Assembly (NCBI GenBank): GCA_030746775.1
Contig: JASLLZ010000002.1
Location: 1,663-65,662, forward strand
Length of the DNA stretch: 64,000 bases
Reading direction: 5' to 3'
Source: Rhodospirillales bacterium
GTDB taxonomy: Bacteria > Pseudomonadota > Alphaproteobacteria > Rhodospirillales > JASLLZ01
The stretch's first letter is position 1. The number at the start of each line of letters is the position of its first letter. The translations under genes were made by a program, and so were the position numbers. Of this stretch, positions 21,924 to 57,786 are shown one piece after another. The notes beneath the pieces are model-generated. The model searched no databases. It saw only the letters and a program-made list of their open reading frames with translations, and had not been told where the DNA came from.

Positions 21924-23570
21924 ATGAACCACATAACGCCGATGGCGGATCAGACGCGGAAAAAGTCAGTGCGCTTGGTTCGAGATACGGACGATCGTCG
22001 TCTCTCGGATATATACGAGATGTTTGCGGCTCCGGAGGGAGCGACGGGAAAAGTAACGCTTGTTCGGCCTTTTTCGGTGCTCTCCAAATCGACCTACAGC
22101 GCCGCCATCCTTCCCCCCCTCGGACTGGCTTACCTGGCTTCCGTTCTGCGCGGCGCGGGCTACGACGTCGGCATCGTCGACGCCCAGGGCGCCGACATCT
22201 TCAATATCCGCCATTCGGATTGCGGGCGCTACTATCTTCAGGGACTTGGCATCGACGAACTGGTCGAGAAGATCGACCCGGCGACGACGATCGTCGGGGT
22301 CTCGCTGATGTTCTCCCAGGAATGGTTGCCGCAAAGGGATTTCATTCAAGCGGTCCGGGCGCGCTATCCGGACATGGTCATCGTCGTCGGCGGCGAGCAT
22401 CCGACGGCTTTTCCCGAATACGTGCTGCGCGATTGCCCCGAGATCGACTACGCCATTTCCGGGGAAGCCGAGATTACTTTCCTTGAACTCGTCCATCGGA
22501 TATTCCACGCCAAGGAGACGTTGGATTCCCCGGGCGTCGCCTGTATCGATGAAAAGGGTTCCCTGGTCAGTAACGGCTTCAGCGACCGCATCACCCATAT
22601 CGACGACCTGCCCCGGCCGGCCTGGGACCTGTGCGAGGTCGAGAACTATTTCCAGCCCAACTGGGCCATGGGCATCGGCATGGGGCGCCACATGCCGGTC
22701 CTGGCGACCCGCGGGTGTCCCTACCAATGCACGTTTTGCTCCAACCCGCTGATGTGGACGACGCGCTACAAGATGCGCGACCCCAAGGACGTGGTGGACG
22801 AGATCGCCTACCTGGTCCGCCAATACAAGGTCGACAGCATCGATTTTTTCGACCTGACGGCGATCGTGAAAAAGGAATGGACCCTGGCGTTCTGCGCCGA
22901 GCTGAAACGCCGCAACGTGTCGGTCACCTGGCAACTGCCGTCGGGCACGCGGTCCGAGGCGCTGGATTTCGAGACCCTGACCGCCATCTACGAGACCGGC
23001 TGCCGGCTCATCACCTATGCGCCCGAAAGCGGATCGGAAAGGACCCTCAAGGCGATCAAGAAAATGCTCAAGCTGGAGCGCATCATCGATAGCATTCGGA
23101 CAGCCAAGCGGATCGGTCACACGGCCAAGGTCAATCTTGTCATCGGCTTTCCCGATGAACGCCATGGCGATATTCTCAAGACGCTGTGGCTCAGCTTCAA
23201 GTTGGCGCTGTATGGCGCCGATGACTGCAACATCTCGATCTTCTCGCCCTATCCCGGTTCGGAACTCTATGAGCGGTTGCGAGGGGAAGGCAAGATTCCC
23301 GAGCCCGACGACGATTACATCATTTCGTTGCTGGTGTATTTCGACCTGACGAAAACGGCGTCCTATTGCGAAGGGGTGAGCGGCCGATCCCTGGCGTTCT
23401 ATCGTCTGGTCGTCTATCTGGTCTTTTACTCGACCGCCTATCTCGTCTATCCGAAGCGCCTCCTTCGCGTCGTCAAGAGTATCATGAGCGCCACATTCAA
23501 GCCCGCCAACGTCATCGAGCAGCGCCTTTACGATATCTATGCCCGAAGGACCCGCAGCCGAAGTGCGTGA
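21924..23570 (+). CDS. Cobalamin-binding radical SAM protein
   Basis: PPLGLAYLAS, GGEHPT, RGCPYQCTFC (CxxxCxxC), ESGS, PYPGS. Confidence 0.92.
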   Translation: MNHITPMADQTRKKSVRLVRDTDDRRLSDIYEMFAAPEGATGKVTLVRPFSVLSKSTYSAAILPPLGLAYLASVLRGAGYDVGIVDAQGADIFNIRHSDCGRYYLQGLGIDELVEKIDPATTIVGVSLMFSQEWLPQRDFIQAVRARYPDMVIVVGGEHPTAFPEYVLRDCPEIDYAISGEAEITFLELVHRIFHAKETLDSPGVACIDEKGSLVSNGFSDRITHIDDLPRPAWDLCEVENYFQPNWAMGIGMGRHMPVLATRGCPYQCTFCSNPLMWTTRYKMRDPKDVVDEIAYLVRQYKVDSIDFFDLTAIVKKEWTLAFCAELKRRNVSVTWQLPSGTRSEALDFETLTAIYETGCRLITYAPESGSERTLKAIKKMLKLERIIDSIRTAKRIGHTAKVNLVIGFPDERHGDILKTLWLSFKLALYGADDCNISIFSPYPGSELYERLRGEGKIPEPDDDYIISLLVYFDLTKTASYCEGVSGRSLAFYRLVVYLVFYSTAYLVYPKRLLRVVKSIMSATFKPANVIEQRLYDIYARRTRSRSA

Positions 23571-43754: not shown

Positions 43755-45539
43755 CTAGTCGCAACCCGCCGCCACGGCTTCGTCGGCGGCGGTTGCCTGC
43801 TGGGCGTCCGCCGCGATCTCGGGACCGAACAGACCGATGATGCGCTCGTTCGTGATTGCCGGTAGCTCGGCAAGTCGCCGGGCAATCACCGCATTGAAAC
43901 CAGGAACTAGGGGATGGTCGGGCCGGTATATATTGTTCAACTCGCCGGGGTCGGTGCTGACGTCGTAAAGTTCGTTGCCCTCGGGGCTGAGGTTGTCGCG
44001 GGGGTCGCGATATTCCTTCCACAGGTAGTGATGGTCGCGGGTGCGAACCCCGAAATAGAGCGGCCGGTGGTCGAACAGGCAATTGCCGGCGAAAAAGGTC
44101 TCCATCAGCACATGCGGCTGTTGTGCCTGCGCCGCGTCGGTCAGGGCCGTGCCTTCCCATCCAGGCGCCGGCTCGATGCCGGCCAGTGCCGCCGTCGTCG
44201 GGGCGATATCCATGATGGTGGACAGCCCGTCGTACCGTTGCGCCCCAAGTCCGGGCCGATGAAACAAGGTCGGAACTCGGGCGTTATGCTCATAGAGCAG
44301 GAAATAGTGGCCAAAGTCTCCGTGGTCGCCCAGTTCCTCGCCGTGGTCACCGCTGATCACGACCAAGGTGTCATCTCGCAGGCCAAGCCGGTCCAGGGCG
44401 TCGACGATGCGCCCAATCTCCGCGTCGGTGGATCGAAGCGCCGCGTCGTAAAGGGCCGAAAAGACGGCTTCGTCTTCCTTGTTGTTTGGTTTTTCACCGA
44501 AGGTCACCGATGGGTTGAAGTCTCGCGGGTAACCAAGGGCGGCAAGGTGGTCTGCGGTTTGCTCGTACCATTTTAGGCCGTGGCCCGAGACGTAGGGTTC
44601 ATGGGTGTCCATGAAATGGGTCCAAATGAAAAACGGCCGCGTGGAATCCCGATTGTCTAATAAAGAGATGACCTTGTCGGCCAGCGACCGCGCGTCGGGA
44701 TAGTTCTTGTATCGCGTGCTTCGGCATTGCGCCAAGCCAGGGCGCACCGTGCCGAGCAACCGGTTGCCGGCGCGGAACAGCCCTTCGCTCAGAAGTTTGG
44801 TCAACTTGCGGCAAAAATACCATTCCTTGGGCAGCCAACGCCCCCCCCAAGCGTCCATGGTCGCGGCGTTCCACAGGTGCTTGTCCACGTAGGCCAATTT
44901 GTCGGCCAGATATTCCTGCCGGTGGCGGTCGATGAGTTTTCGTACCTTGATGAAATCGTAACGCGCATTGACCAGGCCCGAATGGGGGAAGTCGGCCCTC
45001 AGTTCCTCCTGTCGTTGCAAGTGAAGGGCGCAATACTCAAGGGTGTTGTCGAACATCTTGAGGAGCACCGGATCGACCGCTTCCAACATGGCGTCCGGGG
45101 AGATGTCCTTGGATTGGTAGCCGGCGAGAGAACTTCGGATCATTGCCAGCGCCACTCCGGGAAGCGTGTTCAGCCCGAAGAGTTGGTACTCCTCGTCGAT
45201 GCCATCGCCATAACCGAAAAAGCGGTTGACCCAGTGGAGCGTGCTAAGACAGGTGGTGTGATAGCCGGCGTCGTGAAAGCACTTGAAGATCGTCGGCGGG
45301 CGTCCCCGGGCGCCGTAATCGTATCCGCCGTATGACAGCGGCCTGCTTGAGGTCAGGAATTGAACGCAAGCGGTTTGGGTAAAGGTGCCCATGGTGTACG
45401 AGCGTTCGCACACGATGGCGTCCCGGGCCAGGCGCTCCAGAGTCGGGGTCGTCGGGCGCGCATAGCCGTGCAGACTCGCGCGGTCGGCGCGAAAGGCGTC
45501 GATCGTCAAAACGATCACGTTCGGTTGGCTCGACGACAT
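43755..45539 (-). CDS. Sulfatase/alkaline-phosphatase superfamily hydrolase or transferase
   Basis: PNVIVLTIDAFRAD, HFMDTHEPY, SGDHGEE, ELYD..DPGE; canonical C/SxPxR motif missing. Confidence 0.85.
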   Translation of the reverse strand: MSSSQPNVIVLTIDAFRADRASLHGYARPTTPTLERLARDAIVCERSYTMGTFTQTACVQFLTSSRPLSYGGYDYGARGRPPTIFKCFHDAGYHTTCLSTLHWVNRFFGYGDGIDEEYQLFGLNTLPGVALAMIRSSLAGYQSKDISPDAMLEAVDPVLLKMFDNTLEYCALHLQRQEELRADFPHSGLVNARYDFIKVRKLIDRHRQEYLADKLAYVDKHLWNAATMDAWGGRWLPKEWYFCRKLTKLLSEGLFRAGNRLLGTVRPGLAQCRSTRYKNYPDARSLADKVISLLDNRDSTRPFFIWTHFMDTHEPYVSGHGLKWYEQTADHLAALGYPRDFNPSVTFGEKPNNKEDEAVFSALYDAALRSTDAEIGRIVDALDRLGLRDDTLVVISGDHGEELGDHGDFGHYFLLYEHNARVPTLFHRPGLGAQRYDGLSTIMDIAPTTAALAGIEPAPGWEGTALTDAAQAQQPHVLMETFFAGNCLFDHRPLYFGVRTRDHHYLWKEYRDPRDNLSPEGNELYDVSTDPGELNNIYRPDHPLVPGFNAVIARRLAELPAITNERIIGLFGPEIAADAQQATAADEAVAAGCD

Positions 45540-45581
45540 GGATTTCTTTGAAGGGAGGGTGTGGCTACCCGTAAGTCCCGT

Positions 45582-46379
45582 TTAAGGACGGCAAAGGAAT
45601 AGGGGTGATCGCTTGGGAATCCCAAAGTATCCCTTTTCGTCCATCTCAGCCTGCACCACGGTGGCGTAACGCTCGAAGAAGTCGTCGGCCACCGACATGT
45701 CGCGCGGCTTCACACCCGAGGCGACGTAATCGAGCATGAACTGGATGTCGGTAACTTCCAGCATGTCCTCCTGGACGTGTTTTTCGATGTTGCCGAAAAA
45801 TTGGGGCAGCATCTTGTCTGCGATTTCCTCGGTGAAACTGTCGATGATCCGATCGGTGGGAAAATTCGCATCAAGGCGGCGACCGATCTCGTAGACATTG
45901 AACATGTGGATCTCGCTGTTCGTCGTGATGGTGACGAACCCGTCAGGACGCAGGACCCTCTTAATCTCGGAAAATGCGCGGGCTTTGTCCTGGGTGTGAT
46001 AGATGATGTGATGGGCGTTGACGAGGTCGAAACTGTCGTCGTCGTAGGGAAGATTCTCGACGTCGGCGGTTTCCACTTTCGCCTCCGTGTCGCCCAGGTT
46101 GGCCAGGGTCTTTTCCACCATGGCTTGCGAGAAGTCGGTCAGGGTCAAGGTGGAGCCGGCGGGCAAGCGGGACTGATTTTCCCGCCAGAAGATTCCCGTG
46201 CCGCATCCCACCTCCAAAACATCGACCGGCTTGGTCAGCGGCAAATGGCTGCCAATCCAGGCATGAAACGATTCCGGATTGGTGCTGAACAACTGGTGTA
46301 TCTTGATCCTGGCGTCGAGATTTGCCGTCGTGCCGTACTGCAGGTTTTTCAGATATTCCTTGGTGATCGCGGTATCCAT
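45582..46379 (-). CDS. Class I SAM-dependent methyltransferase
   Basis: VLEVGCGTG, LPYDDDSFD, RVLRPDG. Confidence 0.9.
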   Translation of the reverse strand: MDTAITKEYLKNLQYGTTANLDARIKIHQLFSTNPESFHAWIGSHLPLTKPVDVLEVGCGTGIFWRENQSRLPAGSTLTLTDFSQAMVEKTLANLGDTEAKVETADVENLPYDDDSFDLVNAHHIIYHTQDKARAFSEIKRVLRPDGFVTITTNSEIHMFNVYEIGRRLDANFPTDRIIDSFTEEIADKMLPQFFGNIEKHVQEDMLEVTDIQFMLDYVASGVKPRDMSVADDFFERYATVVQAEMDEKGYFGIPKRSPLFLCRP

Positions 46380-46404
46380 TGATCATATTCCCCTGCTTCG
46401 CGAA

Positions 46405-46992
46405 TTAACCCTTGATCCTAAACGCTTCTATTCCCTCGCAGCCAATATGTTCGACGACGGCTGCGCCCGACGCCGGAACGTCGATGCGAAAAATATCGGG
46501 CATGGTGATGGCCAGCCACTCCTCGTAACCAAAGCTGGGATCGTAGGTGTTGAGAATCAATCCCATCAAGGTGCCGTGGCTAACCACGGCAACGGCTTCG
46601 TCAGGGTGGTCCTTCTGAATCTTCCTCAATGCGCTGGTGGCGCGAACTTGCGCCTCGGCATTGGTCTCGCCACCGGGGAGGCGAAAGTCAAAGTCCTCCC
46701 ACATCCTTTGCCGCGCCGCCTTGAGGTCGGCGATGGGCTCGTCGGACATGGTCTTTTCCCTGAATTCGTCAGCGACGGTCACGCTGAGGCCGAGGCGTTT
46801 GGCCAGGGGTTCCATGGTCAGTCCGGCCCGCCGGAACGGGCTGGTATAGAGCGCCTTGACGGGAGGCGTCGCGGCCACCAGGCGCTCGGCAATCTGCTCC
46901 GCGTGCACCTGCCCTTCGGGTTCCAGTCCGCGTTCCGCGTCGGCCCCCCCCAGTTCCGATTTTCCGTGGCGTATCAGGTATACGGAATGCAT
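46405..46992 (-). CDS. Histidine phosphatase family protein
   Basis: LIRHG, SPFRRA, GGE, VSHG. Confidence 0.9.
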   Translation of the reverse strand: MHSVYLIRHGKSELGGADAERGLEPEGQVHAEQIAERLVAATPPVKALYTSPFRRAGLTMEPLAKRLGLSVTVADEFREKTMSDEPIADLKAARQRMWEDFDFRLPGGETNAEAQVRATSALRKIQKDHPDEAVAVVSHGTLMGLILNTYDPSFGYEEWLAITMPDIFRIDVPASGAAVVEHIGCEGIEAFRIKG

Positions 46993-47020
46993 AAACTTAT
47001 CTCCCAATTAGTGCACGTTC

Positions 47021-47554
47021 TTAGGTGAATCTAGGAAGCGCCTTGATGATGCGATCGACCAATTGCGTGATGTCTTCGAGCGCCTGATTGTTGTCGATGG
47101 TGAAATCCGCATTGCCTGGTGGAACGAAGGGAATGTCCACGCCGACAACGTCCTTCTTCTCGCCGGCAAGGGCCGGTTTGTATATGTTCTTTACGTCGCG
47201 GGCAAGCAGGGTTTCGAGCGACACATCCACAAATATCTCGAAATACTGATCGAAAGTCTCGCGATTCCAGCGCAACCACTCGGGATAATTGGACAGCACC
47301 GCGCAGATCATGTGAATGCCCTGCCGGTCGAGAAAAGCGCAGAGGTGGGAAAATCGACGTGCGTTCGTCTGCCGATCCTCGTAGCTATACCCCAGGTCGT
47401 GTCCCATGACTTGGCGAAACTCATCGCCGTCGAGGAAGACCAAGTTGGTGTGCCGGCCCTTGAGGCGCTCATAAAGCGCGCGGCCGATCGTCGTCTTTCC
47501 CGAACCGGAAAGTCCGGCGAGCCAAATGATCATCGCCAATACAGTCTCTGACAA
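47021..47554 (-). CDS. Adenylylsulfate kinase-family protein (Cj1415-like CDP-amidate 3'-kinase candidate)
   Basis: GLSGSGKTT P-loop, LDGD, RDVKNIY, VVGVDIPF. Confidence 0.85.
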   Translation of the reverse strand: MSETVLAMIIWLAGLSGSGKTTIGRALYERLKGRHTNLVFLDGDEFRQVMGHDLGYSYEDRQTNARRFSHLCAFLDRQGIHMICAVLSNYPEWLRWNRETFDQYFEIFVDVSLETLLARDVKNIYKPALAGEKKDVVGVDIPFVPPGNADFTIDNNQALEDITQLVDRIIKALPRFT

Positions 47555-47588
47555 GGATCTGTGTTGTCGGGCAGGGGGAGACCCCAGG

Positions 47589-48674
47589 TCATTCGTACAC
47601 GTGCCCCCATTCGTGGCTGTCCGAGTAATCGTATCCGAGGTCGTGGATCAACTCACGCTGCAAGCGTCCCAAAATATGTTTTTTCCGCGATTCCGAGATG
47701 ACGCCACGTTCCTTGCGGTACGAGACCCGGGAATTCGTCGCGTGTTCGTCTTTGGGGACCTTGTCCGCCATCGCCTTCTTGCTTGTCCTTTTGAGGGCTT
47801 CTTCAAGGCATTCCAGCGGGATGTCCAGTTTCCAAAAGTCGGTCATCGCTTTCAGCGTGCCGACCTGATCCGCCTTCAGTTCATGGTATCTCACGATCAG
47901 GCATCTTGGGTGCCAGGTGGCGACATCCCCCCAGCTATTGTAAAACTCAATGTCGTCGTCGAGGTAACGATCCCAATTGAAACTATCCTCGTCGTCCAGG
48001 GTAACCTCGGGCCAAAAAGAGCTGTTCCCGACCTTGAAGAAGTTGCCTTCCAGGCTTTCGAGGATGGATCGCACGACAACCACCACGTTCATATTCTTTA
48101 CCTTGCGACAGCGCAGGCGGTAATAGGGATGATGGGTGTGATAGAGCACGGGCTCGGTGATCAGCCCGAGCAGATCGTCGTTCATGGTACCCGCCGGCAC
48201 CCGCCAGTCCAGTTTTGTGTAACGAACGCCGCCGCTGGGATGCCACCAGTTGTCGATGTAGGCATAATCCCCTTTGCCGCCGGCGGCGAGGTCCATGGCA
48301 AGCGCGATGGCCAGCGAATACCACCCATATCCTGACCGCGACAGGGTGGCGCAAACGTTATCGATTTTACCGCCGTCGAAATAGAAACCGAGGCAGTTGA
48401 GTTTCTGACGGAAGTCGAAATCAGGACGGAGGAACAACTGGCCCAACGATAACGCGTCCCAAATGTCCTTGGCTGGAAACCTGTTGAGGACGATATCGCG
48501 TGCGCGGACCGGTAGAAGAGTGCGTTCCAGAAAACTCCACACACGGGCGGTGGCGGTGTCATTCGATTGGTAGAGGAGCATCCCGCTCTTGCTGAGGACG
48601 GGTTTGCGTCGCCCAAAAAATTCCCCCCGCGTATTCTCGGCCAGCTCCTCGGTCACGTCTTCCATGCCTGTCAT
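47589..48674 (-). CDS. Divergent sulfotransferase-fold protein
   Basis: SRSGYGW (5'-PSB-like), HTH, VVVRSILESL (3'-PB-like), LIVRYHELKAD; start uncertain (ORF extends to 48764). Confidence 0.7.
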   Translation of the reverse strand: MTGMEDVTEELAENTRGEFFGRRKPVLSKSGMLLYQSNDTATARVWSFLERTLLPVRARDIVLNRFPAKDIWDALSLGQLFLRPDFDFRQKLNCLGFYFDGGKIDNVCATLSRSGYGWYSLAIALAMDLAAGGKGDYAYIDNWWHPSGGVRYTKLDWRVPAGTMNDDLLGLITEPVLYHTHHPYYRLRCRKVKNMNVVVVVRSILESLEGNFFKVGNSSFWPEVTLDDEDSFNWDRYLDDDIEFYNSWGDVATWHPRCLIVRYHELKADQVGTLKAMTDFWKLDIPLECLEEALKRTSKKAMADKVPKDEHATNSRVSYRKERGVISESRKKHILGRLQRELIHDLGYDYSDSHEWGHVYE

Positions 48675-48711
48675 CGGATACCGTTTTTTCCCTTGTATCG
48701 TCGCATTACGC

Positions 48712-49527
48712 TCATCCGTTGACCGTTTCCGCATCGGAGTCGAAAAAACGGGTGATCGAGCCATCGGCCATCATGGCAACGGCCTTTTCATAATCCTTCG
48801 CCGTATCGATCTCAAGCCAGCCGCCGGCGACCGGCACTGCGTGAACCGCGACGCCGGAAAGAATTACCTCCATCAAAAGATCGGTCATGTAGGCACCCGT
48901 CAAGGGCCGCTTTTCCATCCATGGGCGGGGCACCGCCCCGAGCCCGGCACGGGCGGCCCGCAAAGCGTCGATGCCTCCGTTCCTGAACCGCATCAAGCCA
49001 ATGTACTGAGCCTCGATTTCATCAATGTCCGTGACCTTGTTCCCGACATCGGTAATGCAGCCGCGGGCGTCCATGCGCAGGCTTTCGGCGTCGCTTAGGG
49101 GATCTTCGAAGCGGTGCTCCCAATAGGTCCGCCAGTTGCGATCGACGACGATGGAGATCTCTTCAGGGCTGTTGAGCAGGGCAGCGAGGACGCGTGGTTC
49201 ATAGACGATGTCGCTGTAAGAGACAATCAGGTCGCGACCGAACTCGGCCGCCGTGCAAAACAGGGATTCCACCATGTTCGTGGTCTCCCAATGAGGGTTC
49301 AGAATCTGGCGCGTCCCGGGAAGGTTCAACATCTCGCCCCGGTACCCGGTGGCGATGACGATGTCCTTGATGCCAGCGCCTCCGAGGGTGGCGATCTGGC
49401 GTCCGATCAGGGTTTGGCCGCCAAGTTCGGCCAGGCATTTCGGACGGTCCTTGGTATAAGCGTCGAGGCGACTGCCGCGTCCAGCGGCCAGAATGATCGC
49501 CCTCGGGCGAGACCGATCCCCGATCAT
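48712..49527 (-). CDS. LicC-family nucleotidyltransferase (Cj1416-like)
   Basis: AIILAAGRGSRL..PKCL, TNMVESL, SYSDIVY, AQYIGL, WLEIDT. Confidence 0.88.
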   Translation of the reverse strand: MIGDRSRPRAIILAAGRGSRLDAYTKDRPKCLAELGGQTLIGRQIATLGGAGIKDIVIATGYRGEMLNLPGTRQILNPHWETTNMVESLFCTAAEFGRDLIVSYSDIVYEPRVLAALLNSPEEISIVVDRNWRTYWEHRFEDPLSDAESLRMDARGCITDVGNKVTDIDEIEAQYIGLMRFRNGGIDALRAARAGLGAVPRPWMEKRPLTGAYMTDLLMEVILSGVAVHAVPVAGGWLEIDTAKDYEKAVAMMADGSITRFFDSDAETVNG

Positions 49528-50315
49528 TTGGCGCGCGCGATAATCACGGCGGCGTTACAGAAGGCCGGCAAGAAGAGCCCGATCAACGTCTTCTGCACGG
49601 CGTTGCCAAGCAAGGACAGACGGTAGCCCTCCGCCCTCCCCTTGGTTTCATCGAAGGTCTTGTGGGACGCCGCCCGGAAAGGCCGGAACTTGTAGACGAA
49701 AGGCATATTCTCGACGAAATAGATGTCTTCAATGGCAAATCCGTTGCGCGAGAAGACGTCCTTCAATTCCTGTTGCGTGTGGTTGATTTTGTGGAACCGC
49801 CGCTCGCCGCCGGATTGTTTTCGGTCGGTCAGCCAATCGATCATGCGGTTTTGGATGTTATCGAGTCGCATCGCCGCGCAGAGATGACCCCCGGTCTTCA
49901 AGACGCGGCGGGTTTCGCGGACCGCGTCGGCGATCCCTTGTTCCAAATTGTGATAGAGACCGAAAGCCAGGACACAAGAGAGACACTCATCGGCAAAAGG
50001 AAGTTTTTCCACGTCGGCGGCGGTCAATGGGATGGCGGGGACCGCTTGTTTGATCTTTTGGACCGCCGTCGGGATGAAATCCATGCCGATGATGTCGCGT
50101 CCCTGTTGGTGGTAGAAGCGCACGACCCTTCCGGCACCGCAACCGGCCTCGAGGATGGGGCCGCTGACCGTAAGTCGACGCAGGGTGTCTTCGGCGAATT
50201 TCCCGGGGTAGCGTTTCAGGTTGAGCTTGCCGGTATCGGCATCGACGTCGTCCCACCGGGCCTGCCAGTAGGCCCGGCTGCCGCCATGAGAACGATAGGT
50301 GATTCGTGCCATCAA
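49524..50315 (-). CDS. Class I SAM-dependent methyltransferase
   Basis: ILEAGCGAG, LPFAD, RVLKTGG. Confidence 0.88.
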   Translation of the reverse strand: MMARITYRSHGGSRAYWQARWDDVDADTGKLNLKRYPGKFAEDTLRRLTVSGPILEAGCGAGRVVRFYHQQGRDIIGMDFIPTAVQKIKQAVPAIPLTAADVEKLPFADECLSCVLAFGLYHNLEQGIADAVRETRRVLKTGGHLCAAMRLDNIQNRMIDWLTDRKQSGGERRFHKINHTQQELKDVFSRNGFAIEDIYFVENMPFVYKFRPFRAASHKTFDETKGRAEGYRLSLLGNAVQKTLIGLFLPAFCNAAVIIARAK

Positions 50316-50347
50316 TCAAGTCCCCGGGAGCAGAATGCAAGGATTTT

Positions 50348-50974
50348 TCATGGTGACGACGGCCCGCCGATCAGGCTTTCAAGCAACTTGCGGTCGCCGC
50401 CCGGGGCGCCGCGCCGTTCCGCATGCCACATGATCGCCGCAATCGGCAGGGTTTGGTGAAAAAAGGCCTCGACGTTACCGTCTCCATCGTGTGCCGCCCC
50501 AACCAGGCCGCCGCCCAGCCCATCCGCCGGCACCGCCTGGGTATGAAAGGAATTAACCATCGTTTCAGAGTCGTAATAATCCCGCCATGACGCGCCCACG
50601 CTGACCGCGTGCGGACGCGCCACATGGCCGTCGACGGGGACCAGGCGGCCACCGAAGTGAAGGTTTATGAGCTGCATGCCGCGGCAAACGCCAAGGACGG
50701 CGAGGCCGCTTCCAATGGCATGCTCCAACAGCCTGTTTTCCGATGCGTCGCGTTCAGGCGTGGCGCCAAGATCGTCGCCCCCCGTAAGGACCAATAAATC
50801 GGCGCCCAGGCCGTCCAGGTAGCTCTCGGGAGCACTCAGGTGATTGGGCACCAGCAGTGGCGTCATGTCCCATTCGCCGAGCCGCGTCAGCCAGTCATGA
50901 CTGATGGAATCGCGGGGCTCCACGTATTCCGACGCCTGGGTCACGCGCATGGTCAGGGCCACCCTGGGTGTCAT
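50348..50974 (-). CDS. Type 1 glutamine amidotransferase/peptidase C26 (Cj1417-like gamma-glutamyl hydrolase)
   Basis: TGGDD, GVCRGMQ, VNSFH, MWHAER; Y.E.RD N-terminal motif. Confidence 0.88.
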   Translation of the reverse strand: MTPRVALTMRVTQASEYVEPRDSISHDWLTRLGEWDMTPLLVPNHLSAPESYLDGLGADLLVLTGGDDLGATPERDASENRLLEHAIGSGLAVLGVCRGMQLINLHFGGRLVPVDGHVARPHAVSVGASWRDYYDSETMVNSFHTQAVPADGLGGGLVGAAHDGDGNVEAFFHQTLPIAAIMWHAERRGAPGGDRKLLESLIGGPSSP

Positions 50975-50977
50975 CTT

Positions 50978-53323
50978 CTAATGCCCGGTGATGCGGCGCG
51001 CCGCCGCGTTGAGTTCGATGACCGCCGCCGCTGCCAGGGATTCGTACAGGCGCTCGCCGCAGCCGATGGCGGCGGGCAGGCCGAACTCGGCGCAGCGCAC
51101 GGCCATGTGGGAGTTGGCGCCGCCGTACTTGGTCACCAGGCCGGCGATGGCGTGGGAGAAGATCCAGTCGAACCCCGGATCGGCGCTTTCGATGAGGACG
51201 ATGCCGCCGTCGATGTCCGGCGCCCCCTCGACGTCCAAGCGCCGCGCCGGGGCGGTCACCGATTGTCCGGTGATGAAGGTCGGATGGCCGAGCGGCAGGC
51301 GCACCACGTCGATATCCTTGGTCTCGCAGATCAGGTGGGGCAGGCGGATGGCGCGCGTCACTTCGTAGGCCTCGCGCTGGCTGGCGATGCGCTCGCGCAA
51401 GGCGGCGCCGTCACGGTCTTCCAATATATCCCCGATGGTGAGAAACGAGAGATCGTCGCGCTCGAGGCCCAGGGCGGCGCCCCATTGGACCAGGATCGAG
51501 AGCGTCTCGCTGATCGAATGCGTGAAGGCGAACTTGGCCTCCTCGCGCAGGCGCACGGCATCGGCGATGTAGGCCAAAAGGGCATCGGGGTCCAAGGCGT
51601 AACCGAACTCTCCGAGAAGGGTGGCGATGGCGGTGCGCTGGCCGGGGCTTGGCGCGAAGGGCTCGGCCGCGGCCGGCGCCGCGAGCCCGCTATGGCCGAT
51701 AAACAACTCGGGGCGTTCGTCATAGCGCCACGACGTGATGTCGTAGGTGCCGGGACGAAGGTGGCCATAGCGGGCCAGGAACGCCGCCTGGTCCATGACC
51801 CCGGCGCCGACGGCGTGCATGTCGTGGACCAGATCGGCGGCCACCGTGTGGATGGAGCGCATGAAGCGATCCACGTCGTCGGTGGTGAAAACGCCCCGCG
51901 TCACAAGGGAGCGCAGGAAAGCGACGCCAATGAATCCATGGCGCGCCAGCATGGAAAACGGCAGGGTGCCGTTCGTCTTGCAGCCGTCGAGGAGCGACCG
52001 CGCGCGGTCCAGCGACGGGGCGCCGGAATCCCCTGCGCCGTCCGCCAACAGCCCCCGTGCCTGGCGGGCCAGGGCTTCCAGGCCGCCATCGTGTTGGGCA
52101 AGGGCGTTTGCGGTGACTTGACCGAGCGCCCCTTCGAAGGCATCGGCCTCATCCGATGTCATGACGCCGGCGCCGATGCGCGCCCGGTCGTCGGCGAAGG
52201 CAAAATGACGGCAGGTGGCGGCGACCTCGAACTCGATCTTGTCGTGCAGGTCGGGCTGTTCGGCAAGCCGCGCCAACTGATCGTCGACCAGCCTTTGTGC
52301 CACGCCATGATCGAGGTCGGCGGGGAGGAAGGAGTTGAAGCTGAGTCTGACGTCGATATAGGGGCGGCCGTGGAAGTCGATCAGCAGCGGCGCCTCGACG
52401 CGGCGGTATCCCATGGCCGCCCGTGCCTCGGCCCAGACCCGGTCGGTGATCAGGTGTTTGTACAGCGACAGTGCCAGCGGCCGGGGCGCGTTGCCGATCA
52501 TCTCGGCCGGGTTCCAGTCCGGCATCTCGCCGAAGATGGTGCGCCCGCCGGCCAGTCCGGAACGCGGCGCCATACTTTCGCCGATGGTGGCGCGGATGGT
52601 ATCGATGGCGGCGTCGATCACCGGGTCGGGGACGGCGCGCCAGCGCCGCCGCGCCGCCAGGGGGCGGACCTGGAGGATATAGACCTGATCGTCGGCGGTG
52701 GTGCAGAACTCGATATCCAGGTGCTGGGTGGCGGTGACGCGTTCGATCTCGATGACGGCGTCGATCAGGGCCGCCATGCGCGGCGATTTGAGCGCCTCGG
52801 GCCGCGAACGGTGGACAAGGACGGTCTTGCTTTGGGCGCCGCCGGTAACGGTGTCCGTGCGGCCCGAAAAATCGTCGTAGTTGACCACGTAGTAGGGGCC
52901 GCCCGTATCCAACTCGCGGGTCAAGACGACGCCTGACAGCACCGTATTCTCGACCATGGGCTGGATCAGAACCTGGTCGCCGGCGGCCGGCGCGCGGTAG
53001 CTCTCGAAGACGGCGTCGATGGCGCGGGCAAGGTCCGGCGCGCGGGCCTCGACGTCGATCAGGCTGAGATGGGCGCCGGCGTGGGAGGCATCCCAGCCGT
53101 CCTCGCCGGCGGCGGACGATCGTACGGCGAGAAGCCCGGGCGCGAAGCGCCCGACAATGCGTTCGACGACCCGTTCCGGGCTTTGCCGCCACTCGTCCAC
53201 GGCGACCGTGATCTGCGGGCACAGCTTGGCTCCCGCGACTTGGGGGCCCAATTGTTCCAGCGTCTTTGCCTTGGTATTGAACGTGAAGGCTGCTGGCGCG
53301 GTGGCGGCGGATTCTACGCCTAT
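50978..53323 (-). CDS. PEP-utilizing/PPDK-like enzyme (Cj1418-like L-glutamine kinase)
   Basis: AVRSS, QPM, LQVRP, MPDWNPAEMIG, HDKIEF, YGHLRPGTYDI, GGANSHMA phospho-His domain; frame is open upstream of the TTG at 53251, start uncertain. Confidence 0.88.
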   Translation of the reverse strand: MGVESAATAPAAFTFNTKAKTLEQLGPQVAGAKLCPQITVAVDEWRQSPERVVERIVGRFAPGLLAVRSSAAGEDGWDASHAGAHLSLIDVEARAPDLARAIDAVFESYRAPAAGDQVLIQPMVENTVLSGVVLTRELDTGGPYYVVNYDDFSGRTDTVTGGAQSKTVLVHRSRPEALKSPRMAALIDAVIEIERVTATQHLDIEFCTTADDQVYILQVRPLAARRRWRAVPDPVIDAAIDTIRATIGESMAPRSGLAGGRTIFGEMPDWNPAEMIGNAPRPLALSLYKHLITDRVWAEARAAMGYRRVEAPLLIDFHGRPYIDVRLSFNSFLPADLDHGVAQRLVDDQLARLAEQPDLHDKIEFEVAATCRHFAFADDRARIGAGVMTSDEADAFEGALGQVTANALAQHDGGLEALARQARGLLADGAGDSGAPSLDRARSLLDGCKTNGTLPFSMLARHGFIGVAFLRSLVTRGVFTTDDVDRFMRSIHTVAADLVHDMHAVGAGVMDQAAFLARYGHLRPGTYDITSWRYDERPELFIGHSGLAAPAAAEPFAPSPGQRTAIATLLGEFGYALDPDALLAYIADAVRLREEAKFAFTHSISETLSILVQWGAALGLERDDLSFLTIGDILEDRDGAALRERIASQREAYEVTRAIRLPHLICETKDIDVVRLPLGHPTFITGQSVTAPARRLDVEGAPDIDGGIVLIESADPGFDWIFSHAIAGLVTKYGGANSHMAVRCAEFGLPAAIGCGERLYESLAAAAVIELNAAARRITGH

Positions 53324-53340
53324 GGGAGGAGACCTGGTGA

Positions 53341-54909
53341 TTATAGGACTTTCTTGCGGATCGCCGAGGACACCATGTCGATGACGAAGATGGTGGCGAA
53401 TATGATGAAGATGATTGCCGACACCCGGGGATATTCGAACATCCTGAACGACGACTGCAACTCATAGCCGATGCCGCCGGCGCCGACGATGCCCAGCATG
53501 GTCGCCATGCGGACGTTGCGGTCCAGGATGTAAAGGTTGTTGCCGACGAACGACGGCATGATCTGAGGCACCACGGCAAAGGCCAGAACCTGAAGCCGCG
53601 AGGCACCCATGGACCCGAGCGCCTCGATGGGACCGACGCTAACGTGCTCCATGTCCTCGGCGTAGAATTTGGCGAGGAACCCCATGGTGTGGAGCCCCAA
53701 CGCGATGACCCCCGGCATGGCGCCGAAGCCGACGGCGATAACCAAGATCATGGCCATGATGAACTCGGGCACGGCGCGAAAGAAGATGGTGATCGTGCGC
53801 GCCACCATGTAGAGGCCGACGTTGGGAGCGATGTTACGGGCCGAGAAAAGACCCGTCGGAATGGACAGAAGGATGGCCAGGAGTGTGCCCAGAACAGCGA
53901 TCTCGATGGTTTCCAGCATGGACAGCAAAAGGGTTCCGAGGTCGGAGAAATCGGGCGGCCACATCCTGGCACCGACGTCGGCGAAATAGGCCGATGCGTC
54001 CCTGAAGAGCGCCAGGGGATTGAATTCCAAGTCGACCATGATAAGGCCGATGACGGCGGCGGCGAGTAATACGCAGAGGCCGCTACGCCAGCCCCACTGG
54101 GGCCTGAGATAGGATTCGAGAAGCTTGCGCCGGGCCACCGCCGGGTCCAGGTAGCGCTCCATGGCGCCGCCGTATCCGCCGACATCGATGAATTCGTGGG
54201 CGTGCAGGATCAAGTCCTTGAGCTTCTCTCGCATCGAGTCATCGAGACTTCGCGAGCACACCAGCGGCGCGCCCGGAATGTCCTGGGAGCGGTGGATGAC
54301 GCGCAGGGCGCCGGGCGTCACGATGCCTTGGCGCTGGGCCTCCTCCATGTTTACCGAGCTTAGCGCGGCGACGTCGACCTGGCCGTCGAGGACGGCGCGC
54401 AGCGCCTCGTCATGGTTGGCGACGGAAATGACGCCGGCGAATTCGCCTTCGTTGTCGAGGTTGATCCCGGCATCGGCCAACTCGCGCTGGGGCACCATGA
54501 AGCCGCTCGTCGAGTGGCGTCCGCTAACGGCGATCCTTTTCGCCTTCACGTCTTTGAGGGCATGGATGGGAGAGGCGGCTTGGGTGACGAAGACGGATCG
54601 ATAATTGGGCGAGGTTTTGCCTTTGGGCACACCGACGGCCAACGCCTCGACCTGACCGTCGCGTGCCGCTTCGAGATAGGCGAAGGGGCCCAGCCACCCG
54701 ATCTCGGCGGTGCCCTCCGTAAGAGCCTCGATCGCCTCTTCGTAGCTTTTGCAGTAGACGAGTTCGATGGCGATGCCCGAGCGCTCCGCCAGATGACGCA
54801 CCAGGCCCCGAAGGTCCAACCCCTCGGCGTGGTCGCTGGCCGGAGCGACGACCAGTGTCAGGCCGTCGGTGCCGCCCTCGCGGTGTGATATGTCTCTTGT
54901 CTGGGTCAA
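53341..54909 (-). CDS. phnE: Fusion of PhnD-like binding domain and PhnE permease
   Basis: N-terminal WLGPFAY, STSG, NHD; C-terminal RAVPE, GPIEALGSMGA, LGIVGAGGIG. Confidence 0.85.
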   Translation of the reverse strand: MTQTRDISHREGGTDGLTLVVAPASDHAEGLDLRGLVRHLAERSGIAIELVYCKSYEEAIEALTEGTAEIGWLGPFAYLEAARDGQVEALAVGVPKGKTSPNYRSVFVTQAASPIHALKDVKAKRIAVSGRHSTSGFMVPQRELADAGINLDNEGEFAGVISVANHDEALRAVLDGQVDVAALSSVNMEEAQRQGIVTPGALRVIHRSQDIPGAPLVCSRSLDDSMREKLKDLILHAHEFIDVGGYGGAMERYLDPAVARRKLLESYLRPQWGWRSGLCVLLAAAVIGLIMVDLEFNPLALFRDASAYFADVGARMWPPDFSDLGTLLLSMLETIEIAVLGTLLAILLSIPTGLFSARNIAPNVGLYMVARTITIFFRAVPEFIMAMILVIAVGFGAMPGVIALGLHTMGFLAKFYAEDMEHVSVGPIEALGSMGASRLQVLAFAVVPQIMPSFVGNNLYILDRNVRMATMLGIVGAGGIGYELQSSFRMFEYPRVSAIIFIIFATIFVIDMVSSAIRKKVL

Positions 54910-54930: not shown

Positions 54931-55728
54931 TCAGGCCGTGAAGCGCAAATCCTCTTCGGGGCGCGCCTGATCGGCACCTGGACCAAAGAACAGTCCTTGG
55001 TCGTGGCCCCGGTAAATATCTTGGATATATCCTTCGTCGACCTCGTCCGTAGGTCGGTCCATGACGATCCCGCCACCCGCCAGGCCGACGATGCGGTCGG
55101 CGAAGCGCAGTGCGAAATCAACCTGATGGAGGTTGCACACCACGGTAATGCCATGCGTCCGGTTGATGTCTTTGAGGAGCGACAGAATGTTAAAGGCGAT
55201 CAATGGATCCAGACTCGCCACCGGTTCATCGGCGAGCAGCACGGCGGGCTTCTTGATGATCGCCCGGGCGATTCCGACGCGCTGCTGCTGGCCGCCCGAC
55301 AGCCGGTCGGCCCGCGTATAGGCCTTGGCCAGGATGCCGACGCGGTCGAGGCATTCGAGCGCCCACAGCTTGTGCTCCTTGTTGAACAGATAGAGCAACG
55401 ACGCCATCGTCGCGGTGCGGTCAAGGACGCCGGTCAGGACGTTGTTGAGGGCGGTCAAGTTGCCGACCAGGTTGAAGTCCTGAAAAATCATGCCAATGCG
55501 CCCGCGGACTTGGCGCAGGGAGTCCTTCGCGACACGCCGACCTTCGAGTTCGACGGTGCCGGTGCTCGGCGTTACCAGGCCGTTGATACAGCGTAGAAGC
55601 GTCGTCTTTCCCGAACCGCTGGGGCCTAAGACGACGACGAATTCGCCCTTGCCGACCTCGAGGGACACGTCGGAAAGGGCCCGCGTTCCGTCCTCGAAGG
55701 TCTTACCCAGGTGGGCGATGCTCAGCAT
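54931..55728 (-). CDS. phnC: Phosphonate/phosphite ABC transporter ATP-binding protein
   Basis: GPSGSGKTT, LSGGQQQRVGIARA, ADEPVASLDP, NLHQV; start at MLSI. Confidence 0.92.
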   Translation of the reverse strand: MLSIAHLGKTFEDGTRALSDVSLEVGKGEFVVVLGPSGSGKTTLLRCINGLVTPSTGTVELEGRRVAKDSLRQVRGRIGMIFQDFNLVGNLTALNNVLTGVLDRTATMASLLYLFNKEHKLWALECLDRVGILAKAYTRADRLSGGQQQRVGIARAIIKKPAVLLADEPVASLDPLIAFNILSLLKDINRTHGITVVCNLHQVDFALRFADRIVGLAGGGIVMDRPTDEVDEGYIQDIYRGHDQGLFFGPGADQARPEEDLRFTA

Positions 55729-55741
55729 GGCCGAGGGATCG

Positions 55742-56623
55742 TCACTTTTTCTTCGATTGGCGCAGCAAGCGGTCGACCGCGCGCAGTGTGTCGTAGTCGG
55801 AATCCTTGACTTCCACATAGCGCTCCATCTCGCCGCCGTAGCCGCCGATACGGCCATGCTTGTGGGCCTCCAGCGTGGCGCGCTTGATGGCGTCGCGTAC
55901 CTCTTGGGGCAACCGCTTGGAATAGGCCAAGGGCGGCGGCGGCACGGGAGGTGAGGTGTGGATGATGCGCACCTCGGCCCGCTTGAAGGTGCCGTCGGCA
56001 AGGCGGGCGTCGAAATTGCGCGAACTCATGCCGCAAACGTCGGCGTGTTTGTTGAGCACGGCAAGCAGGCAGGCGTCGTGGCTGCCGGCGTAGACGACCC
56101 GTTTGAAGTGTTCGCGATTGGTCGTCGAGAGGCCGACCTTTCTGAGCTCCACCTGGGGGATGAGATCCCCCGATGTAGAGCCGATGGTGTTGAGGGCCAA
56201 AGTCTTGCCACTTACATCTGTGAGGGTCTTGAGGGGACTGTCGGCCGGGACGACGAAGTGGGCAAAATAGCCGGCCGTAGTGTCACCCTTACGGATGCCG
56301 GCGGCAAAAGCTTCGGCATCGGCGATCTCGGCGGCCATGATGTAAGTCTTGCCGCCGTACCAGGCGATCTCGGCGCGTCCGGCCCGCATGGCCTCGACGG
56401 CGGCGTTGTAGTCGGTGATTTTAATGGGCTTGATCTCATAGCCGGTCAGGTCGCCGATGATCTTGATCAGGTTGACGTAGTCCTTTTCGTCGCCTTTCTC
56501 GCTGGCCGGAACGAAGACCATGTTGAGCTTAAGCGCGGCGGCTTGGGAAGGCGCCGGACTCAAGGACAAACCGGCGGCCAGGGTCACGGCGACGATCAGT
56601 ATTCTTGCGTATGATTTATTCAT
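55742..56623 (-). CDS. phnD: Phosphate/phosphite/phosphonate ABC substrate-binding protein
   Basis: Signal peptide; DYNAAVEAM, STSG, AGSHDA, DSDYD. Confidence 0.88.
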   Translation of the reverse strand: MNKSYARILIVAVTLAAGLSLSPAPSQAAALKLNMVFVPASEKGDEKDYVNLIKIIGDLTGYEIKPIKITDYNAAVEAMRAGRAEIAWYGGKTYIMAAEIADAEAFAAGIRKGDTTAGYFAHFVVPADSPLKTLTDVSGKTLALNTIGSTSGDLIPQVELRKVGLSTTNREHFKRVVYAGSHDACLLAVLNKHADVCGMSSRNFDARLADGTFKRAEVRIIHTSPPVPPPPLAYSKRLPQEVRDAIKRATLEAHKHGRIGGYGGEMERYVEVKDSDYDTLRAVDRLLRQSKKK

Positions 56624-56670
56624 TGCTTTTCTCTCTTCGTTGCGTGCCGGTTTTATCCTCCGGCGTCGTG

Positions 56671-57786
56671 TCACTCCTCGAACTCCAAGAGCGCTTTTTC
56701 GTAGTCCTCGACGGTGTCGATTTCCTTCCAGCCGCGTTCGATGATGACGCAGTGGACGGGAACGCCAAGGTCGGCCATCTCCTGGATCATGTCGGTGAGA
56801 TAGGCCTTCTCGAAGGTCTCCGCCCTCTGAAACGGCTTGCCCCAGTAGAGGGCCTTGGCACGATGGAAGTGGCGCTTGAAGATTTCCGCCCCTCTCGGGG
56901 TCAGCTTCATCATGCCGATGAACTCGCCGTGGACGTCACGCTTGTCGGTCAGAATCTTGCCGATATTCACGACGTTGTTGTTGGCGTCGAAGATGACGTT
57001 CTCGGCCTCGTCGATGGGGTGCTGCTTGCGCCCGACGTAGGTGCCCTTCCAGTCAATGTCGACGACGATGGAGATGTCGTGCTCGGAATCGAGCAATCGG
57101 CGTACCACGTGGTCTTCGAACAAGATGTCGGAATAGGCGACGATGACGTGGCCGTTGATCTCGTCCTCGGCGCAGAAGATAGAATTGAGGATGTTGTTGT
57201 TCTCAAAGTTCGGGTTCTCGTGATAGCGGATGCCCTTGTATTTGATCTTGTCCTTCTTGTAGCCGCGCACCAGGGCGATGTCCTTGGCCCCGCAGGCCTT
57301 GTAGACGCTGAGCTGGCGCTGCAACAACGTCTTGCCGCCGAAGTCGAGCAGGCACTTGGGCTTGTTTTCGGTGTAAGACCTCATTCGGCTGCCCAATCCC
57401 GCCGCGATGATGAGAACACGCGTATTGGATGCCATCATGGTCTCCTTGATCCGCCTTATCTCGGCACCGTTAAGGCCGTAGTCGGCGATGGCGCGCAAAA
57501 GCCCGACAATGTCGGGGTTGTCCAGGACAAGCTCCCCGACGTCCGGCGGAATGGCGTTGCGCGACCGCCCTGCCAGGTCGAAGATGCGTTCGGCGTCGGC
57601 CTCCAGGATATCGGCCATGGCCCTGACCAGTTCGGGCCTGGGCGCGACGCGCTTGTCCTTCTCGATGTCGTTGAGATAGGACGGCGAGACGTCGAGGGCG
57701 CGCGCCAGTTCGCGCTGGCCCATTCCCTTTTCAGAACGCAGGCGGCGAACGTGTCCGCCGAACGTCGTCGTGCCGGGACGCGGCAT
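56671..57786 (-). CDS. XRE-family HTH fused to LicC/PntC-like nucleotidyltransferase
   Basis: N-terminal QRELARALDVSPSYLNDIEK; then IIAAGLGSRM..PKCL, YSDI, GEFIG, WKEIDT; AGGAGG RBS. Confidence 0.88.
   Translation of the reverse strand: MPRPGTTTFGGHVRRLRSEKGMGQRELARALDVSPSYLNDIEKDKRVAPRPELVRAMADILEADAERIFDLAGRSRNAIPPDVGELVLDNPDIVGLLRAIADYGLNGAEIRRIKETMMASNTRVLIIAAGLGSRMRSYTENKPKCLLDFGGKTLLQRQLSVYKACGAKDIALVRGYKKDKIKYKGIRYHENPNFENNNILNSIFCAEDEINGHVIVAYSDILFEDHVVRRLLDSEHDISIVVDIDWKGTYVGRKQHPIDEAENVIFDANNNVVNIGKILTDKRDVHGEFIGMMKLTPRGAEIFKRHFHRAKALYWGKPFQRAETFEKAYLTDMIQEMADLGVPVHCVIIERGWKEIDTVEDYEKALLEFEE

Follow-up and report, generated by a model that had tools for sequence, protein, structure and literature searches.

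Does a surface-glycan locus of a G+C-rich marine bacterium hold the phosphoramidate (P-N bond) donor pathway known from Campylobacter jejuni and, if so, which of its genes would act after the donor has been made? We addressed this for a block of genes at 45582-53323 in a 64,000-nt stretch (hereafter, the window) of contig JASLLZ010000002.1 from a Rhodospirillales bacterium (assembly GCA_030746775.1). In C. jejuni, the enzymes Cj1415-Cj1418 are described as yielding CDP-phosphoramidate 3'-phosphate, the likely donor for O-methyl phosphoramidate (MeOPN), from glutamine, ATP, and CTP (PMC11800397, in the part concerned with donor synthesis). The original prediction placed six co-oriented gene types in the block and read them as a complete pathway of this kind. 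All six are present on the minus strand, as judged by Pfam and NCBIfam matches, and the assignment of four of them to a Cj1418/Cj1417/Cj1416/Cj1415-type set in a glycan locus stood up to comparison with family models, catalytic residues, and a gene neighborhood that includes glycosyltransferases, Wzy_C, and an exporter. We consider it likely that a Campylobacter-type P-N donor pathway is encoded in an operon-like unit and that phosphoramidate is put on the glycan of this locus. The donor pathway itself is known; what is new is a marine variant joined to unusual extra genes. The genes concerned, in the order of transcription, are as follows.

50978..53323, minus strand: L-glutamine-kinase-type enzyme (Cj1418 type); NF004508, PPDK_N and PEP-utilizers domains
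50348..50974, minus strand: class-I glutamine amidotransferase (GATase)/peptidase C26, predicted gamma-glutamyl-CDP-amidate hydrolase (Cj1417 type); NF045546 best match, below cut-off
49524..50315, minus strand: class-I S-adenosylmethionine (SAM) methyltransferase MT1; Methyltransf_11, 62.9 bits
48712..49527, minus strand: LicC/MobA-type nucleotidyltransferase (NTase), predicted CTP:phosphoglutamine cytidylyltransferase (Cj1416 type); NTP_transf_3, 58.9 bits
47589..48674, minus strand: sulfotransferase-fold protein (ST), 361 aa; Sulfotransfer_1, 25 bits
47021..47554, minus strand: divergent adenylyl-sulfate (APS)-kinase-family kinase, predicted cytidine diphosphoramidate 3'-kinase (Cj1415 type); NF004041, 182.1 bits
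46405..47007, minus strand: histidine phosphatase (branch 1) with RHG motif; His_Phos_1, 89.4 bits
45582..46379, minus strand: class-I SAM methyltransferase MT2; Methyltransf_11, 77.4 bits
43755..45539, minus strand: AP594, alkaline-phosphatase-superfamily (sulfatase-fold) protein, 594 aa; Pfam Sulfatase, 146.7 bits

Besides the six gene types named earlier, the block thus contains the ST gene and the histidine phosphatase gene. All genes within 45582-53323 are co-directional, and the gaps computed from their coordinates are 3, 32, -4, 37, 34, 13, and 25 nt from the kinase to MT2, followed by 42 nt to AP594. The series continues unbroken beyond both ends of the block, with AP594 downstream and phnCDE-like genes upstream. 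The stretch 43755-53323 is probably a single operon-like unit, set among the surface-glycan genes of a marine bacterium that has not been cultured. The remainder of the window makes up a glycan locus encoding glycosyltransferases of families 2 and 4, Wzy_C, PMT_2, a Polysacc_synt_2 dehydratase, and epimerases, together with two AsnB-type amidotransferases, a CMP-sugar-type cytidylyltransferase, an MBOAT protein, a B12-radical-SAM protein, and an MsbA/PglK-type (flippase-type) ABC exporter.

The kinase matched NF004508 (PRK05849) with 840.8 bits (cut-off, 501) over profile positions 24-786 of 789, and with 861.5 bits in a separate search. No protein of 14 control genomes matched this model above the cut-off. 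Pfam domains comprise an N-terminal PPDK_N and a C-terminal PEP-utilizers phosphohistidine swivel, and the carrier histidine of the latter (His739, in GGANSHM) does not vary among the 13 aligned kinases. The same alignment holds 213 invariant columns at identities down to 52%, and identity to cross-phylum homologs is 33-61%. The nearest relatives are found in metagenome-assembled genomes of Rhodospirillaceae. Automated annotation had been expected to mislabel such genes, and in part it does: NCBIfam models would give "hypothetical protein" and "adenylyl-sulfate kinase," and NCBI records of the kinase homologs read "pyruvate phosphate dikinase" or "hypothetical protein." The expectation failed for JGI, where 11 of the 120 homologs listed are labeled "glutamine kinase."

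The kinase comprises 781 aa if read from an ATA codon at 53321-53323, or 757 aa from the TTG at 53251, which is the first ATG, GTG, or TTG and the start taken by the protein-database gene caller. The ATA aligns with the initiator Met of the nearest homologs, and the invariant residues F13, F15, K18, and L22 lie upstream of the TTG. The ATA could be either a rare start codon or a base error; four seawater runs had no alternative letter there, with cover at the exact site confirmed for not all four. In these four runs, contig depth also rose about three-fold over positions 51805-52126 of the kinase (38 versus about 11 in run X2), probably owing to contigs of other organisms with the same kinase family.

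Two further core genes encode the predicted hydrolase and cytidylyltransferase. The GATase was most similar to NF045546 (gamma-glutamyl-CDP-amidate hydrolase), with an E value of 2.3e-24, and the next family followed at 5e-10, 14 orders of magnitude apart. The score of 86.6 bits is below the equivalog cut-off of 250, so we liken the protein to Cj1417 in function and do not file it as a member of the equivalog. Its Cys-His-Glu triad (C97, H184, and E186) is conserved in at least 93% of 69 kinase-adjacent homologs. The NTase carries the signature G-x-G-x-R...K of the LicC/MobA type, with G16, G18, R20, and K30 conserved in at least 93% of 81 sequences, and its best PDB sequence matches were phosphonate cytidylyltransferase 6pd1 and LicC 1jyk.

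The APS-kinase-like enzyme passed the cut-off of NF004041 (182.1 bits; cut-off, 127) and narrowly failed that of TIGR00455 apsK (136.9 bits; cut-off, 138.7). The genome encodes a separate, canonical APS kinase elsewhere, which scored 220 bits against PF01583, versus 126 bits for the 3'-kinase, and only 105.1 bits, below the cut-off, against NF004041. The two proteins are 30% identical. The canonical kinase and the ATP sulfurylase of this genome lie on other contigs, and no ATP sulfurylase is encoded in the window. We built a tree of 90 APS-kinase-family rows, in which a branch with an SH-like approximate likelihood ratio test (SH-aLRT) support of 97, taken from an IQ-TREE quick tree, separated 68 rows, including the window 3'-kinase, from 22 others. 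On the 68-row side, 59 lie beside a glutamine kinase, 2 are in loci that also contain ATP sulfurylase (KS), 3 have an unknown context, and 4 are re-fetched copies. Of the 22 rows on the other side, 8 are canonical kinases from genome-wide searches, 7 adjoin an ATP sulfurylase, 2 are the second kinase of a mixed locus, and the last 5 include 4 that are adjacent to a glutamine kinase. All 18 canonical-type kinases (100%) have the proline of the canonical I-S-P motif, as against 0% of the 68 cassette-type kinases.

We examined whether the same partners recur elsewhere. A scan with the kinase alignment, using one genome per species, returned at least 600 stretches and at least 590 confirmed relatives. 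The kinase family therefore occurs in no fewer than 590 species genomes, in most cases with the same partners next to it, and the rarity outside Campylobacter that had been assumed for it does not hold. The 80 best loci, picked through the kinase alone, come from Rhodospirillaceae, other Alphaproteobacteria, Pseudomonas, Aeromonas, Alteromonas, Legionella, Cohnella, and Desulfovibrio, as well as from Planctomycetota, Verrucomicrobiota, Chloroflexota, Acidobacteriota, Acidimicrobiia, a bacterium of the candidate phyla radiation (CPR), and DPANN archaea; Campylobacter is not among these 80. Searching them by tblastn with the window proteins, we found the GATase in 73, the NTase in 72, the APS-kinase-like protein in 54, MT1 in 14, AP594-like proteins in 5, MT2 in 4 (partial), ST in 2, and the histidine phosphatase in none. 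Since the loci had been found via the kinase only, the frequencies of the GATase, NTase, and APS-kinase-like genes indicate that the arrangement is not due to chance. The usual order is kinase, GATase, nucleotidyltransferase, and the loci lie among sugar-nucleotide and nonulosonic-acid genes (DegT in 22/80, NeuB in 10/80, and CTP_transf_3 in 11/80).

Among relatives of the window's organism, the kinase is patchy. Of 40 further genomes from its order, 5 have a full-length copy, none was found in the sole genome of the same genus (94% complete), and 15 of the 401 genomes sampled from the class, counting that of the window (G000), have a kinase over the cut-off. The cassette is a common, cross-phylum, and little-studied one. 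Cultured carriers of all four core genes include Thalassobaculum fulvum KCTC 42651 (L042), Rubricella aquisinus DSM 103377 (L037), and Methyloversatilis universalis EHg5 (L038). Our full-text search, with subscription journals mostly outside it, found no paper on its wide distribution or on this marine variant. A 2024 preprint describes a similar cluster in Borg elements. Atlas look-ups yielded nothing beyond generic family names.

In an all-against-all comparison, 50 cassettes had a 3'-kinase that clustered, and in 22 of them this kinase is followed by a 195-aa protein that matches nothing in Pfam or NCBIfam. The loci concerned (22/80; L002, L005, L013, L015, L022, L023, and others) all bear a cassette-type 3'-kinase, and a 249-aa formyltransferase-like protein usually adjoins the 195-aa one. 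Neither protein clustered with any gene type of the window, which was not itself searched for them directly. We considered the histidine phosphatase as a diverged form of the 195-aa protein and rejected this, as the two showed no similarity (BLASTP E value, 0.16).

The window resembles the C. jejuni MeOPN pathway (Cj1418 kinase, Cj1416 cytidylyltransferase, Cj1417 hydrolase, and Cj1415 3'-kinase) in having the same four enzyme families and SAM methyltransferases in a surface-polysaccharide locus. Its transcription order of kinase, hydrolase, nucleotidyltransferase, and 3'-kinase also agrees with what we take to be the Campylobacter order, judging from the gene numbering. It differs in belonging to a G+C-rich marine bacterium, in having a GATase below the Campylobacter-based equivalog cut-off, in interleaving ST, the histidine phosphatase, and a Thr-type sulfatase-fold gene, and in having phnCDE-like genes upstream.

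The sequences themselves show family membership by models, conserved catalytic residues, a conserved gene neighborhood, and a distinct 3'-kinase clade; every chemical step, the acceptor, and what each of the three extra genes does are inferred, as follows. The four core genes most likely make 3'-phospho-CDP-amidate, by analogy with their families: the kinase would phosphorylate L-glutamine on its amide nitrogen, the nucleotidyltransferase would couple the phosphoglutamine to CMP, the C26 amidohydrolase would free glutamate to leave CDP-amidate, and the APS-kinase-like enzyme would phosphorylate its 3'-hydroxyl. The donor would then serve to place phosphoramidate on the glycan made by the surrounding genes, with AP594 as the putative transfer enzyme, and the phosphoramidate would probably be methylated by MT1 and/or MT2. 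ST is probably a 3'-phosphoadenylyl-sulfate (PAPS)-dependent sulfotransferase that would act on the same glycan. For the histidine phosphatase, our guess is a 3'-phosphatase that would strip the 3'-phosphate from the spent nucleotide, a 3',5'-bisphosphonucleotide by-product.

MT1-like proteins form a cluster found in 12 loci, all 12 with an APS-kinase-like gene, a pattern that fits O-methylation of the phosphoramidate but is not proof of it. The Campylobacter proteins Cj1419 and Cj1420, which the original prediction listed as established methyltransferases, receive no functional assignment in the section of PMC11800397 that deals with them.

The pathway cannot be called complete, because no transferase has been identified, and the original prediction overlooked the genes that are candidates for this step. 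One of these is ST. The AlphaFold model of ST (pLDDT, 84.7) matched PAPS- or PAP-bound cytosolic sulfotransferases best in Foldseek (E value about 3e-7; probability, 1.0). ST has the conserved motifs RSGxxW and VVVRSILESLES, located at R113-S-G-x-x-W118 and R202-S-I-L-E-S-L-E, and residues R113, G115, W118, and R202 are invariant in 22 of 22 sequences. We take the two motifs to be PAPS-binding sites, for the 5'-phosphosulfate (as a loop) and the 3'-phosphate, respectively. Since 3'-phospho-CDP-amidate resembles PAPS, ST seemed a plausible choice for the missing transferase. A word-based search across 5.8 billion proteins retrieved only 42 relatives, and a metagenome scan gave 43 ST-found loci, many of them short contigs and two of them (L123 and L124) identical. 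Beside ST in these 43 loci were an APS-kinase-like gene in 23, a sulfatase-fold gene in 16, the NTase in 15, the glutamine kinase in 13, the GATase in 11, and partial, weak MT2 matches in 6; the histidine phosphatase was found in none.

A hidden Markov model of the ST family matched in only 2 of the 80 kinase-found loci, plus one match at an E value of 0.009. When the 43 loci were combined with L008, L010, and the window, a fusion of pyruvate-kinase barrel, PUA, and ATP sulfurylase was present in 15 of the 46, most with a canonical-type APS kinase next to ST. Three of these loci (L132, L136, and L148; 16-21 kb) have the fusion and ST with no glutamine kinase, four ST loci hold both the sulfurylase and the glutamine-kinase modules, and on the ST tree members from cassette and from sulfurylase contexts are interspersed. 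We therefore rejected ST as the general transferase of the cassette. Given the sulfurylase context and the intermixed tree, the family is best read as true sulfotransferases that often lie beside or inside a phosphoramidate cassette. For the window protein, we lean toward a true PAPS sulfotransferase adding sulfate to the same glycan, which may draw PAPS from the housekeeping genes; a phosphoramidyl transferase is a doubtful assignment for it.

The three-part fusion, about 718 aa long, joins a pyruvate-kinase barrel, PUA_2, and ATP sulfurylase and is found repeatedly beside an APS kinase and the ST family in nonulosonic-acid-type loci (L136, L132, L138, L008, L113, L114, and others). It seems to serve glycan sulfation as a PAPS source of its own.

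These observations raise the alternative that the APS-kinase-like enzyme, ST, the "sulfatase," and the histidine phosphatase together are a PAPS system of APS kinase, sulfotransferase, and PAP phosphatase, the product of the kinase, GATase, and NTase being separate or irrelevant to the glycan. The likeness is that a 3'-phosphorylated nucleotide donor would be made by an APS-kinase-family enzyme with a sulfotransferase-fold protein and a phosphatase beside it. The ST fold with both PAPS-binding-type motifs, the sulfurylase fusion beside the ST family, the intermixed ST tree, and the Pfam names of the neighbors (APS_kinase and Sulfatase) all speak for it. However, the window 3'-kinase falls on the cassette side of the split with SH-aLRT 97, 30% identical to the canonical APS kinase, and the ATP sulfurylase is on another contig. 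The same kinase type accompanies a glutamine kinase in 54 of 80 loci, only 2 of which have ST. The "sulfatase," finally, does not look like one: the formylglycine motif is missing in all 21 family members, and the gene is absent from all five long sulfation-only loci. We regard a pure sulfation module as improbable, and continue with the P-N donor pathway and with AP594 as its second candidate transferase.

AP594 has the sulfatase fold, and its best sequence matches are sulfatases. Aligned to a solved sulfatase, the formylglycine motif C/S-x-P-x-R is replaced by T54-Q-T-A-C, in which Pro and Arg are missing. A Thr occupies the nucleophile position in 21 of 21 AP594-family sequences, none of which has the P or R of the motif. 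Because Thr stands in place of the formylglycine precursor, AP594 is not a formylglycine sulfatase and is not filed as one. The metal ligand D14 and the D398-H399 motif are kept. Thr-nucleophile members of the alkaline-phosphatase superfamily carry out covalent-transfer chemistry. Like the EptA/MCR phosphoethanolamine transferases, LtaS, and nucleotide pyrophosphatases, AP594 combines the fold with a Thr at the formylglycine position, D14, and D398-H399. It differs from EptA, MCR, and LtaS in its sulfatase-like best matches and in that it is predicted to be soluble, with no Pfam match to an N-terminal membrane domain; the NCBIfam models of these enzymes matched it weakly (18-26 bits).

The gene context of AP594 is that of the cassette. 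It lies within the cassette in L002, L003, L004, and L030, and the five kinase-found loci that have it hold the cassette by construction. Among the 43 ST loci, AP594 occurs in 16, of which 10 have the kinase or GATase, 3 have a cassette-type NTase or 3'-kinase, and 3 are short contigs. At an E value of at most 1e-40, AP594 was present in 1 of the 401 genomes of the class sample, that of the window. In the 80 kinase loci, 19 of which have TagF-like genes, AP594 and TagF-like genes never share a locus. One TagF-like cluster occurs in 11 of the 80, all 11 without an APS-kinase-like gene. This variant has the same kinase/GATase/NTase core, whereas the window has a 3'-kinase. A TagF-like transferase was rejected for the window's organism because its genome (97.6% complete) has no match to PF04464.

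AP594 is a candidate phosphoramidyl transferase on these analogies, and we put this forward tentatively, as possible rather than probable. A more specific proposal is that the soluble, Thr-nucleophile AP594 would represent a new class of phosphoramidyl transferase that works via a covalent Thr intermediate formed from (3'-phospho-)CDP-amidate and replaces Cj1421/Cj1422 and TagF-like enzymes, while ST would then sulfate the same glycan or the amide nitrogen, giving a combined sulfo/methyl-phosphoramidate decoration; taken jointly, these elements are unlikely. In Campylobacter, deletion of Cj1421 or Cj1422 is stated to abolish MeOPN (PMC11800397, same part as above).

The donor could also be made for a target other than the polysaccharide of this locus, for example lipid A or the core of lipopolysaccharide (LPS), or a small metabolite in solution. 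In a 2014 paper, phosphoramidate lacking the methyl group is noted for LPS of Xanthomonas campestris and Shewanella (PMC3907429). An acceptor-specific transferase is not identified in the locus, and base composition points the same way: G+C is mostly 0.63-0.69 in the window and drops to 0.57-0.58 at 46-50 kb, versus 0.65-0.68 in the cassette flanks. Together with one seawater contig that possibly joins the flanks without the cassette, the lower G+C means that the cassette may be a mobile insert with no functional tie to its neighbors. Against this, the genes of the block run closely spaced in a single direction and are flanked on either side by glycan genes, and related cassettes lie among sugar-nucleotide and nonulosonic-acid genes, as counted above. 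We judge another target to be quite improbable. That the kinase phosphorylates a substrate other than L-glutamine, its product being no phosphoramidate, is very improbable: the modest identity to cross-phylum homologs (just 33-61%), a comparison made without a Campylobacter sequence, and a GATase under its equivalog cut-off allow for it, but the full-length match to one equivalog model well over the cut-off, the 213 columns invariant in 13 sequences, and the constant pairing with a gamma-glutamyl-type C26 hydrolase (73/80 loci), which makes sense only if a glutamyl group needs removal, do not.

Several points weigh against placing a Campylobacter-type donor pathway, and its use on the glycan, in this locus. 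Orthology to Cj1415-Cj1418 is indirect, as it rests on NCBIfam models, JGI names, and synteny with no Campylobacter sequence in the comparison, and a PDB sequence search with four cassette proteins retrieved no Campylobacter pathway enzyme. That NF004508 contains Cj1418 and NF004041 contains Cj1415 is our unconfirmed assumption. The GATase score is far under the equivalog cut-off, the libraries searched held no cytidylyltransferase-specific family model, and the kinase has ATA where its homologs start, with no ATG, GTG, or TTG at that position. In the APS-kinase-family tree, the canonical side includes four kinase-adjacent enzymes (two from Cohnella, L004_5642, and L011_933), and the support of 97 comes only from the quick tree, FastTree giving 0.265 at the corresponding node. 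In L113 and L115, a cassette-type kinase lies beside ATP sulfurylase and is the only APS-kinase-family gene of its contig, a context suggesting that such a kinase may also act on APS; the 3'-kinase may thus have a dual role, on CDP-amidate and on APS. No transferase was identified in the locus, in a comparison that had sequences and models of Cj1421 and Cj1422 outside it, and the AP594 counts are small and come from loci related to one another.

Upstream of the kinase, the series continues with four genes whose membership in the cassette system is uncertain.

56671-57786, minus strand: helix-turn-helix (HTH)-LicC-type nucleotidyltransferase, upstream of the cassette
55742-56674, minus strand: PhnD, upstream of the cassette
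about 54931-55740, minus strand: PhnC, upstream of the cassette
53341-54909, minus strand: PhnD-PhnE fusion, directly upstream of the kinase

By coordinates, the end of the HTH-NTase gene overlaps phnD by 4 nt, and 17 nt separate the phnE stop from the ATA of the kinase. Phn homologs were found in none of the 80 kinase-found and none of the 43 ST-found loci. Among solved structures, the HTH-NTase is closest to CTP:phosphocholine cytidylyltransferase, and its translation is coupled to that of phnD-phnC and of the unusual PhnD-PhnE fusion. These genes may take up a phosphonate or a comparable head group and activate it with CMP for use in the same glycan. Orthologs of the HTH-NTase (60-85% identity) lie near ST in L123/L124, L146, and L147. 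Elsewhere in the window, the B12-binding radical-SAM protein is encoded at 21924-23570, and a similar protein adjoins an ST-family gene in L125 (6687-8210).

Nine coded studies have seawater and marine metagenome runs in which the stretch was detected, and it may itself derive from some of them; no RNA data set is listed as a carrier. In seawater run X5, one low-depth contig (depth, 2.1; shorter side, 31 nt) joins 45541 to 53345 and omits exactly the 7.8-kb MT2-to-kinase block. It hints, weakly, at a haplotype that lacks the cassette or carries a diverged one, and no direct repeat is present at the edges 45541 and 53345. Neither this joint nor the gap in cover over 44399-44720 in run X7 was used as evidence.

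Reviews have described this chemistry as confined to Campylobacter: one from 2019 gives the modified sugars as known from Campylobacter only (PMC6429109), and one from 2022 terms the kinase C. jejuni-specific (PMC9561416), in the passages of each that treat the topic. The genes nevertheless span many phyla. The transfer step is unsolved even in Campylobacter, and the marine variant supplies two concrete, assayable candidates for the steps that follow donor synthesis. The ST family, often found with its own PAPS-making genes, cautions against reading sulfotransferase-shaped genes as the missing transferase. Should AP594 prove to be the transferase, P-N chemistry would gain a new class of enzyme; otherwise, the locus would be one more copy of a common, little-studied cassette. 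What makes the locus interesting is chiefly that AP594 can be tested as a candidate transferase and that sulfation and phosphoramidate modules are repeatedly paired in marine bacteria.

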